From: a virus
Lineage: Duplodnaviria; Heunggongvirae; Uroviricota; Caudoviricetes
Length of the DNA: 37,564 nucleotides
IMG/VR virus record: IMGVR_UViG_2684622670_000021
Span: 1-37,564 of that record
Direction: 5' to 3' (one strand)
Part shown: piece after piece, positions 18,938-20,989 of the stretch
How positions within the stretch are numbered: position 1 is the stretch's first letter
Layout of the letters: each line of letters opens with the position of its first letter
Made by a program: the position numbers and the translations under genes
The notes under the pieces: generated by a model
The model's input: the letters and a program-made list of their open reading frames with translations, nothing else
Database searches by the model: none
What the model was told of the DNA's origin: nothing

Positions 18938-19120
18938 ATGATCATGCTGATTCTCGCGCCTCTGGTGGGCGTGCTGGGGGCGCTTTTGCTGGCGTATGGT
19001 GCCTGGCTGATTTATCCCCCGGCGGGGTTTGTTGTTGCCGGGGCGTTGTGCCTGTTCTGGTCGTGGCTGGTAGCGCGATATCTCGATCGTACACAGCTGT
19101 CTGTTGGTGGAGGTAAATAG
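18938..19120 (+). CDS. Small hydrophobic protein (60 aa)
   Basis: Short ORF with two predicted TM segments between the terminase and portal genes; coding status uncertain. Confidence 0.35.
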
Positions 19121-20202
19121 TGTTCTTTTCGGGATTATTTCAACGAAAAAGTGACGCACCGGTGACCACGCCAGCAGAGCTGGCGGATGCCATCGGGTTG
19201 TCCTACGACACCTATACCGGAAAGCAGATCAGCAGTCAGCGGGCCATGCGACTGACGGCGGTTTTTTCCTGCGTCAGAGTGCTGGCAGAGTCGGTCGGGA
19301 TGTTGCCCTGCAATCTGTATCACCTGAACGGCAGCCTGAAGCTGAGAGCCACCGGCGAACGTCTGCATAAACTGATCTCCACGCATCCCAATGGCTATAT
19401 GACGCCGCAGGAGTTCTGGGAGCTGGTGGTCACCTGTCTGTGCCTGCGGGGAAACTTTTACGCCTACAAAGTGAAAGCATTTGGCGAAGTGGCTGAACTG
19501 CTGCCCGTCGATCCCGGCTGTGTGGTACCGAAGCTTAACAGTAGCTGGGAGCCGATCTATCAGGTCACATTCCCGGATGGCTCCACGGATGTACTGAGCC
19601 AGGAGGATATCTGGCATGTGCGCACGCTGACGCTGGACGGACTGGTGGGGCTGAATCCCATCGCCTATGCCCGCGAGGCAATATCGCTGGCGGCAGCGAC
19701 CGAAGAGCACGGGGCCAGACTGTTCAGCAATGGCGCGGTGACGTCGGGTGTGTTGCGTACAGAGCAGACGCTGTCAGATCAGGCTTATGAGCGCCTGAAG
19801 AAAGATTTTGAGGAGCGTCACACCGGGCTTGGCAATGCTCACCGCCCGATGATCCTTGAGATGGGGCTGGACTGGAAGTCGATGGCGCTGAACGCCGAGG
19901 ACAGCCAGTTCCTGGAAACCCGCAAGTTTCAGCTTGAAGAAATCTGTCGTCTGTTCCGGGTGCCGTTGCACATGGTGCAGAACACCGATCGCGCCACCTT
20001 CAACAATATCGAAGAGCTGGGGCTGGGATTTATCAACTATTCACTGGTGCCGTATCTGACCCGCATCGAACAGCGGATCAACACCGGACTGGTACGAAAA
20101 AGTAAGCAGGGCGTTTATTACGCCAAATTTAACGCCGGGGCGTTACTGCGCGGGGATATGAAGTCCCGTTTTGAAGCCTACGCCACCGGGATTAACTGGT
20201 GA
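19120..20202 (+). CDS. Portal protein (HK97 family), interrupted by an in-frame TGA
   Basis: 360-aa ORF with portal character; the same frame continues past the TGA at 20200-20202 for 52 more sense codons (IYSPNDCRDLEDMNPRPGGDVYLTPMNM...) resembling portal C-termini, ending at 20361. Confidence 0.8.
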   Translation: MFFSGLFQRKSDAPVTTPAELADAIGLSYDTYTGKQISSQRAMRLTAVFSCVRVLAESVGMLPCNLYHLNGSLKLRATGERLHKLISTHPNGYMTPQEFWELVVTCLCLRGNFYAYKVKAFGEVAELLPVDPGCVVPKLNSSWEPIYQVTFPDGSTDVLSQEDIWHVRTLTLDGLVGLNPIAYAREAISLAAATEEHGARLFSNGAVTSGVLRTEQTLSDQAYERLKKDFEERHTGLGNAHRPMILEMGLDWKSMALNAEDSQFLETRKFQLEEICRLFRVPLHMVQNTDRATFNNIEELGLGFINYSLVPYLTRIEQRINTGLVRKSKQGVYYAKFNAGALLRGDMKSRFEAYATGINW

Positions 20203-20338
20203 ATTTACTCTCCCAATGACTGCCGCGACCTGGAAGATATGAATCCGCGTCCCGGTGGTGATGTCTATCTCACACCGATGAACATGACCACGAAACCCTC
20301 CGATGGCAGTAAAGCCGGCAAGCAGAAGGATAACGCCA

Positions 20339-20989
20339 ATGCAGACGAAACAACGTCTTGATGTACCGCTGAGTCTGAAATCTGTCAGTGACTCCGGTGA
20401 GTTTGAAGGGTATGGCTCCGTCTTTGGTGTAAAGGACAGCCACGATGATGTGGTGATGTCCGGGGCATTTGCTGCTTCCCTGCGGGCGTGGAGTGACAGA
20501 AAAGCGTTACCTGCGCTGCTCTGGCAGCACCGCATGGATGAACCCATCGGTGTTTACACCGAAATGAAGGAAGACGATGTCGGGCTTTACGTCAGGGGAC
20601 GGTTGCTTATTGATGATGATCCCCTCGCAAAACGCGCACATGCACACATGAAGGCCGGTTCGTTAACCGGCCTTTCTATTGGGTACGTCCTGAAAGAGTG
20701 GGAATACGACCGGAGCAAAGAAGCCTTTCTGCTGAAAGAAATCGACCTCTGGGAAGTCAGCCTGGTGACGTTCCCGTCTAACGACGAGGCGCGGATCAGC
20801 GACGTCAAGAACGCACTGGCCCGCGGGGAAATCCCCGAACAGAAAAAAATCGAAAGAGTCCTGCGTGATGTCGGACTCTCCCGTACCCAGGCCAAAGCAT
20901 TCATGGCCGGGGGCTATGGCGCACTGTCCCTGCGCGACGCTGAGGATGTGGGCTCTGCACTGAATGCACTGAAAAATCTGAACTTCTAA
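20339..20989 (+). CDS. Prohead protease (HK97 family)
   Basis: Caudovirus prohead protease character (LKSVSDSGEFEGYGSVFGVKDSHDDVV...LWQHR); start placed at the internal ATG (MQTKQRLD) with an upstream AAGGA. Confidence 0.8.
   Translation: MQTKQRLDVPLSLKSVSDSGEFEGYGSVFGVKDSHDDVVMSGAFAASLRAWSDRKALPALLWQHRMDEPIGVYTEMKEDDVGLYVRGRLLIDDDPLAKRAHAHMKAGSLTGLSIGYVLKEWEYDRSKEAFLLKEIDLWEVSLVTFPSNDEARISDVKNALARGEIPEQKKIERVLRDVGLSRTQAKAFMAGGYGALSLRDAEDVGSALNALKNLNF

Follow-up and report, generated by a model that had tools for sequence, protein, structure and literature searches.

The DNA described here is IMG/VR virus record IMGVR_UViG_2684622670_000021, a stretch of 37,564 nucleotides (nt), called the window in what follows, which holds a complete prophage, and its portal gene very probably carries a real, non-programmed nonsense mutation. 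The interruption is best explained by a recent G>T substitution at position 20200, which would have turned the conserved Gly361 codon GGA into TGA. Translation would end 53 residues early, within the conserved Phage_portal domain, and the remaining 52 codons would persist as an untranslated relic, so far without further changes. The otherwise complete prophage would then be in the first, point-mutation stage of decay. Loss of portal function is the predicted outcome, and the prophage can most probably not make infectious virions. An earlier note on this DNA had offered three readings, namely a defective prophage with a nonsense mutation, an error of sequencing, and readthrough of the stop codon. 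The first of these is supported by the Gly found at this codon in intact homologues, by the rarity of the allele, and by two more lesions in the same prophage.

The portal gene and its disruption comprise the following features:

19120..20202, plus strand: truncated HK97-family portal open reading frame (ORF), 360 codons plus the premature TGA, with a match to PF04860 and 99.5% identity to the 413-amino-acid (aa) portal of E. coli TOE3.
20200..20202, plus strand: premature opal stop G361*, a derived G>T at 20200, aligned to GGA or GGG in relatives.
20203..20361, plus strand: stranded portal 3′ end, 52 sense codons and the native stop TGA at 20359-20361, containing SPNDCRDLEDMNPRPGGDV.
19343, plus strand: second derived portal change, A>T (Q75L), private to the window lineage among the compared sequences; the nearest intact haplotype and the other compared relatives have A (Gln).

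The ORF begins with GTG, is preceded by GGAGG, and shares 1 nt of its start with the ymfR stop. Past the premature TGA the frame stays open for exactly 52 sense codons (20203-20358), so that translation in one frame from 19120 to 20361 spans 360 + 1 + 52 = 413 codons. The stop lies in the local context ...AACTGGTGAATTTAC..., the base after it being A (UGA-A), and the segment that follows reads IYSPNDCRDLEDMNPRPGGDVYLTPMNMTTKPSDGSKAGKQKDNANADETTS (beginning IYSPNDCRDLEDMNPRPGGDVYLTPMNM...). By our own arithmetic, an open run of 52 codons would arise by chance with a probability of (61/64)^52, or ~0.08, which is not significant and, alone, weak evidence. Since homology and not the length of the open frame decides this question, the tail is considered the genuine portal 3′ end: its protein is 100% identical to residues 362-413 of the 413-aa WP_000466250.1 of E. 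coli KS-NP019. The native stop falls within the protease gene, overlapping it by 23 nt if the protease starts at ATG 20339, as in the annotation of the RefSeq relatives, or by 59 nt if it starts at ATG 20303, as annotated in SfIV. The earlier note had described a portal ORF halted at this TGA, a portal C-terminus continuing for 52 sense codons up to an overlap with the protease start, and a full-length product of ~413 aa, the usual size for the family. This description is borne out in all its parts, both by the ORF list with its translation and by the intact relatives, which are 413 aa long.

The assignment to the portal family is clear. The 360-aa ORF matches the Pfam family PF04860 (Phage_portal) with an E-value of 1.8e-100 and 336.7 bits (cut-off 39.1), and it occupies the head-module position of a portal, between TerL and the protease and capsid genes. 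The match covers profile positions 2-308 of 321, whereas in an intact relative residues 47-373 cover positions 2-321. The complete domain is therefore not contained in one uninterrupted ORF, the rest of the profile lying in frame beyond the TGA. Sequence and context make the gene an HK97-type portal, yet, because of this interrupted domain, it reads as a portal pseudogene. The closest solved structure is the HK97 portal gp3 (8cez; phmmer E=1.1e-51, query residues 27-385 aligned). The alignments to HK97 gp3 and to 9lbn gp1 pass uninterrupted through the stop position, with about 30-35% overall identity, and residue 361 is Gly in all three proteins (the intact portal, HK97 gp3, and 9lbn gp1). 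Downstream of the stop, the motif SPNDCRDLEDMNPRPGGDV of this family corresponds to TINEMRRTDNMPPLPGGDV in HK97 gp3, the conserved pattern being ...N.(M/D)P..PGGDV. HK97 gp3 (8cez/8fql), the type member of PF04860, is thus a homologue that shares Gly361 and the downstream motif, although identity is only about one third and the window ORF stops at the equivalent of ~residue 379 of the 424-aa HK97 protein. Since this motif is kept from the present family to HK97 gp3 and 9lbn gp1, constraint on the lost C-terminal segment is implied. Judged from the general portal fold, the missing 53 residues would belong to the crown region that forms the lining of the DNA channel at its inner end.

The close relatives of the gene are numerous. 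The 1242-nt stretch that contains both stops matches 1,398 E. coli records, 1,102 of them over at least 80% of its length and mostly with 95-99.7% identity, as well as the phages SfIV, SfII, SfI, ST64B, 118970_sal3, phi467, and phiP27. In KS-NP019, SfIV, ST64B, and phiP27, an uninterrupted portal of 413 aa (414 in ST64B) is annotated between TerL/ymfR and the prohead protease. At the position of the TGA, the nucleotide alignment gives GGA in KS-NP019 and SfIV and GGG in ST64B and phiP27, in all cases Gly. The comparison with intact homologues proposed in the earlier note therefore has a simple answer, a Gly codon within genes that run on to 413 aa; and because every relative examined, ~1,000 complete E. 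coli genomes included, reads GGA or GGG there, the premature stop is a derived G>T transversion at 20200. The locus is present in 996 complete E. coli genomes and 14 phage records, and none of them matches the 61-mer centred on the TGA exactly; the best come within one mismatch (98.4% identity). Exact and degenerate pattern scans of the GTDB species representatives and of IMG/VR gave no further instance of the allele. The exact 360-aa product is found in one assembly only, GCA_001514785.1, on the 114-kb contig BBVP01000018.1, which matches the window with 100% identity. The closest intact haplotype, the Logan contig L024 (SRR23924991), shows 12 differences over positions 16657-24000 (~7.4 kb). 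It carries the lineage markers 20193T, 20319C, and 20698G, yet it has GGA at 20200, A at 19343 (Gln75), and CAG at 26138, a site discussed below. Inside the portal gene, Q75L is the sole other difference from this haplotype, and both derived portal changes are transversions to T. Only in the lineage of the window itself can the stop allele be recognised with confidence.

These data also bear on the idea that the 360-aa portal is itself functional or selectively retained, the stop being a tolerated length variant. The ORF does retain 308 of the 321 profile positions, and besides Q75L it shows no further damage. Some portals can assemble without their C-terminal extension, the barrel of P22 being an example. 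The earlier note had reasoned that intact portals ending at this same position would speak against an interruption. No such portal was found among the close relatives examined or the two aligned solved homologues, a comparison that included no systematic protein-level survey for naturally short portals. Moreover, the motif removed is conserved as far as HK97 gp3 and 9lbn gp1, which argues for constraint, the allele is confined to one lineage, and the absence of further decay is explained equally well by a recent mutation. A working truncated portal is thus highly improbable.

The reading of the stop as an inactivating mutation is reinforced by the rest of the prophage. When every annotated protein of the collinear prophage of E. 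coli TOE3 was compared with the window, two further disrupted genes emerged, both intact in close orthologues, as expected for pseudogenes in a decaying prophage:

25889..26245, plus strand: tail tube gene, with TAG at 26138-26140 (Q84*) where relatives (118 codons) have CAG; an 83-aa ORF is left.
10938..11846, plus strand: DUF968 gene, lacking 11 bp between 11841 and 11842, which shortens the product from 329 to 302 aa.

In the DUF968 gene, ATACCGTGGTA of E. coli TOE3 is missing, and the frameshift leads straight into a TGA. The full-length E. coli matches to a 72-mer across the junction are all 80-90% identical, the band expected when the 11 nt are present, and the deletion junction is apparently absent from complete E. 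coli genomes. As for the tube amber, none of 984 complete E. coli genomes and 12 phage records matches its 61-mer exactly. The TAG does occur in three further Logan contigs, L010 (SRR13061432), L013 (DRR017159), and L009 (SRR21545349). The last of these has a backbone 97.5% identical to the window and an intact portal, and still carries the tube amber; its positions 10001-10252 (SRR21545349_18) were aligned with window positions 25839-26149 and are identical to them over a 311-nt tract around the TAG, differences appearing 12 and 20 nt downstream. The presence of the amber on this second haplotype suggests, most simply, spread by recombination, recurrence being less likely. Since the amber is shared with other samples and the opal is found only in the window's lineage, the tube mutation was likely the earlier of the two, and the portal mutation would have followed under relaxed selection. 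Two other interpretations were considered and dropped. An apparent C/T heterogeneity within samples at 26138, taken from contigs ending at tube codon 83, proved to reflect partial 83-aa products at contig ends: L014 and L015 end in ...GGTCA (the wild-type CAG), L011 and L012 stop just before the codon, and L016 and L017 are unreadable there. Deamination at Dcm sites was likewise rejected as the cause of the point changes, since neither the portal nor the tube site lies, by eye, within CC(A/T)GG.

Whether the base call is real is a separate matter. In the case of a sequencing or assembly error, the strain would truly have GGA and an intact portal, and the TGA would be confined to the deposited draft contig. 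The source is indeed a draft whole-genome shotgun assembly (BBVP01000018.1), G>T is a known type of oxidative-damage artefact, and one error-rich metagenome contig (L005, described below) shows that G>T miscalls at this locus exist in public data. Nevertheless, the variant is reproduced by an independent assembly. The window protease has a lineage-specific D>E change, and a look-up of the exact protein led to L024 and to the Logan contig DRR017161_230 (L026). The latter, obtained with a different assembler and reported in 3 samples, is 100% identical to window positions 19980-21684 (1705 bp), the TGA included. In addition, the contig L010, from the unrelated run SRR13061432, has 1 mismatch to the window in 12,994 bp, so that the deposited contig is not error-rich, and the tube TAG is confirmed independently in SRR13061432 and SRR21545349, an indication that this lineage does carry genuine nonsense alleles. 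Judged from the assemblies, the TGA is unlikely to be an assembler artefact, given that the Logan assembly reproduces it, and an error of any kind at this base is very unlikely. A separate observation on these assemblies is that Logan contigs of different runs break at nearly the same head-module sites, L026 ending at 19980 and 21684 and L010 starting at 21659. This hints at a second related prophage with common k-mers in the host genome, which could in principle complement defective genes.

Readthrough of the stop has also to be weighed. In a functional form, the UGA would be decoded usefully, by near-cognate Trp-tRNA or a host suppressor, and the 413-aa portal would be made, with a viable phage and possibly a lowered portal dosage. 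UGA is the leakiest stop in E. coli, and 12 portal subunits suffice per virion. A natural precedent is the RNA phage Q-beta, in which readthrough of a UGA extends the coat to the A1 protein. As in that E. coli phage, the UGA of the window is followed in frame by a meaningful open frame, but the UGA of Q-beta is conserved and required, while that of the window replaces a conserved Gly codon in a single lineage and is not conserved among relatives. Near-cognate Trp-tRNA would be the likely decoder of any leak (PMC10570021). A reporter UGA in K-12 is read through at ~2% at 37 °C and ~4% at 25 °C, Trp-tRNATrp competing with RF2 (PMC10570021), and the binding of RF2 to UGAA is relatively weak (PMC5373646). 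On the other hand, the RF2 of K-12 is unusually weak, and no extended products were seen with the E. coli B variant of RF2 (PMC5373646). In-frame stops of bacterial genes are, according to one argument, frequently read through or tolerated (PMC7918605); that argument rests on conserved stops, and the portal stop is not conserved. Programmed recoding would predict a stop shared by relatives, yet the portal stop is missing from ~1,000 E. coli genomes, from the phage records with the locus, and from the nearest haplotype: across the 996 E. coli genomes, the 14 phage records, and the GTDB scan, no conserved stop occurs at this position, the sole other instance being L005. Nor is there a dedicated downstream element. 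No selenocysteine insertion sequence (SECIS) or other Rfam element reaches the gathering score anywhere in the window, and the best hairpin near the stop is modest (z = -2.1), its aligned part (to 20260) being unchanged in close relatives with GGA. No tRNA genes, and therefore no phage-encoded suppressor, were found in the window. Decoding by tRNATrp would place Trp at a Gly conserved out to HK97 gp3, the full-length protein containing ...GINWWIYSPNDCR..., and the tube amber would still block virion or tail formation. Programmed readthrough or selenocysteine insertion is thus not supported, and functional readthrough of any sort is scarcely probable; an incidental leak at the UGA may possibly occur.

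Some considerations count against the interpretation of the stop as a recent, fully inactivating mutation, and they deserve to be set out together. The UGA-A is a comparatively weak context for RF2, and some full-length G361W portal may be made. The run DRR017161 may be the very read set behind the deposited assembly, in which case a systematic error would recur in both. Besides the three lesions, every TOE3 gene with a counterpart in the window is full length. Because these remaining genes are intact, the label "defective" is a prediction, which assumes that the portal C-terminus and the tube are both essential. Finally, the metagenome contig L005 (OKGR01000358.1, 1-2815), which belongs to another haplotype, likewise reads TGA at the portal codon, which could mean an older or recurrent allele. 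Of its 2,815 positions, 51 differ from the window; 29 of these (~1%) are private to the contig and transversion-rich (G>T 7, A>T 6, C>A 5). The contig has lost the protease stop codon and lacks the other private alleles of the window. For these reasons it was not accepted as strong, independent evidence of an older allele: the assembly seems to be of low quality, and the TGA in it, possibly a coincidence, carries little weight. A more elaborate proposal is that the portal UGA-A and the tube UAG act as leaky switches, near-cognate or suppressor decoding in the native host giving small amounts of full-length portal (G361W) and tube and hence a very low-output or conditionally viable prophage, or that selection at the level of the host spreads point-inactivated alleles. 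The selection-based version draws on the occurrence of the tube amber on two haplotypes 2.5% apart (L009 and the window); the proposal as a whole is most improbable. Point inactivation in an early stage of decay is still the preferred explanation.

The surroundings of the gene are those of a typical head module. The prophage (~37.5 kb) has the integrase at its left end, followed by early and regulatory genes, the Q antiterminator, a KAP NTPase on the opposite strand, and lysis genes; the order then continues with HNH, TerS, TerL, ymfR, portal, protease, and capsid, the Mu/SfV-like contractile tail genes, and, at the right end, an Acyl_transf_3 gene. E. coli chromosomes match the prophage and its right junction at 98-99.9% identity. 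Six TOE3 genes have no counterpart in the window, all in the immunity region and the tail-fibre/invertase end. The genes adjoining the portal are:

17193..18926, plus strand: large terminase gene, intact, 99.3% identical to TOE3 TerL and without stops; Pfam TerL_ATPase and TerL_nuclease.
18938..19120, plus strand: gene of a ymfR-like small membrane protein, directly upstream, with a 1-nt overlap with the portal start.
20339..20989, plus strand: HK97-family prohead protease gene, PF04586 (Peptidase_S78), in agreement with the RefSeq annotation of relatives.
21004-22209: major capsid gene, in the head module after the protease.

The protease start, which normally overlaps the portal stop, now lies 137 nt downstream of the premature stop, and loss of translational coupling to the protease gene is a possible side effect. 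By our reading of the sequence, the protease gene has its own AAGGA upstream of the ATG.

The element belongs to the SfII/SfIV/ST64B/e14-like group of myovirus prophages that integrate next to proA/thrW. The portals of SfII, SfIV, SfI, ST64B, phiP27, and the thrW-type prophages of E. coli are 97-99.7% identical to that of the window in DNA over the 1242 nt (82.6% in phiP27). The group shares with the window the order TerS-TerL-ymfR-portal-protease-major capsid, the GTG start, and the protease overlap. The difference is that its members have GGA or GGG and 413 aa (ST64B being annotated one codon longer N-terminally), while the window has TGA and Q75L. The e14 element of E. coli K-12 is of the same phage lineage, and RefSeq names several neighbours in the window's group after e14 genes (ymfR, ymfQ, ymfK/T/L, stfP, pinE). 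In e14, too, structural genes are inactivated while the element is kept in the chromosome; of the portal, presumably only a pseudogene fragment (beeE) is retained. However, e14 is a heavily deleted ~15-kb remnant, whereas the window holds a full-length prophage of ~37.5 kb with three small lesions, a much earlier stage of decay.

Nothing in this case is new in kind: it is an ordinary decaying prophage, akin to the familiar cryptic prophages of enterobacteria but at a much earlier stage. It has, nonetheless, practical implications. The portal should be annotated as a pseudogene (G361*), and the prophage scored as probably defective despite its complete gene content. Predictors of prophage completeness that count genes deserve caution, since point lesions can disable a gene-complete prophage. 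The element also provides a small case study of the earliest decay, with three small lesions, no large deletions, and events that can plausibly be put in order. Were the leak hypothesis to hold, the prophage would exemplify natural attenuation by nonsense codons, although nothing found favours a leak.

Some minor observations concern the limits of the window and its accessory genes. Position 1 is the stop codon of the integrase gene and position 37564 the start codon of a 190-aa hypothetical gene; the window was apparently cut at the gene boundaries of a predicted prophage region, with attL/attR and the host flank outside. The accessory genes are:

12334-13665, minus strand: gene of a KAP-family P-loop NTPase, 443 aa, between the Q antiterminator and the lysis cassette; present in the TOE3 prophage.
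15286-16576: DUF6236 gene and HNH endonuclease gene, between the lysis genes and the small terminase.
34844-35977, minus strand: Acyl_transf_3 family gene (PF01757), at the prophage end opposite the integrase.

The KAP NTPase gene has a moron-like position and may be a defence or accessory gene. An HNH gene adjoining the terminase is typical of HK97-like cos packaging modules. The Acyl_transf_3 gene occupies the site where serotype-converting phages of the SfII type hold their O-antigen modification genes, and it may be an O-antigen acetylase moron; beside it, a truncated S24-peptidase remnant is annotated in E. coli KSC1031.

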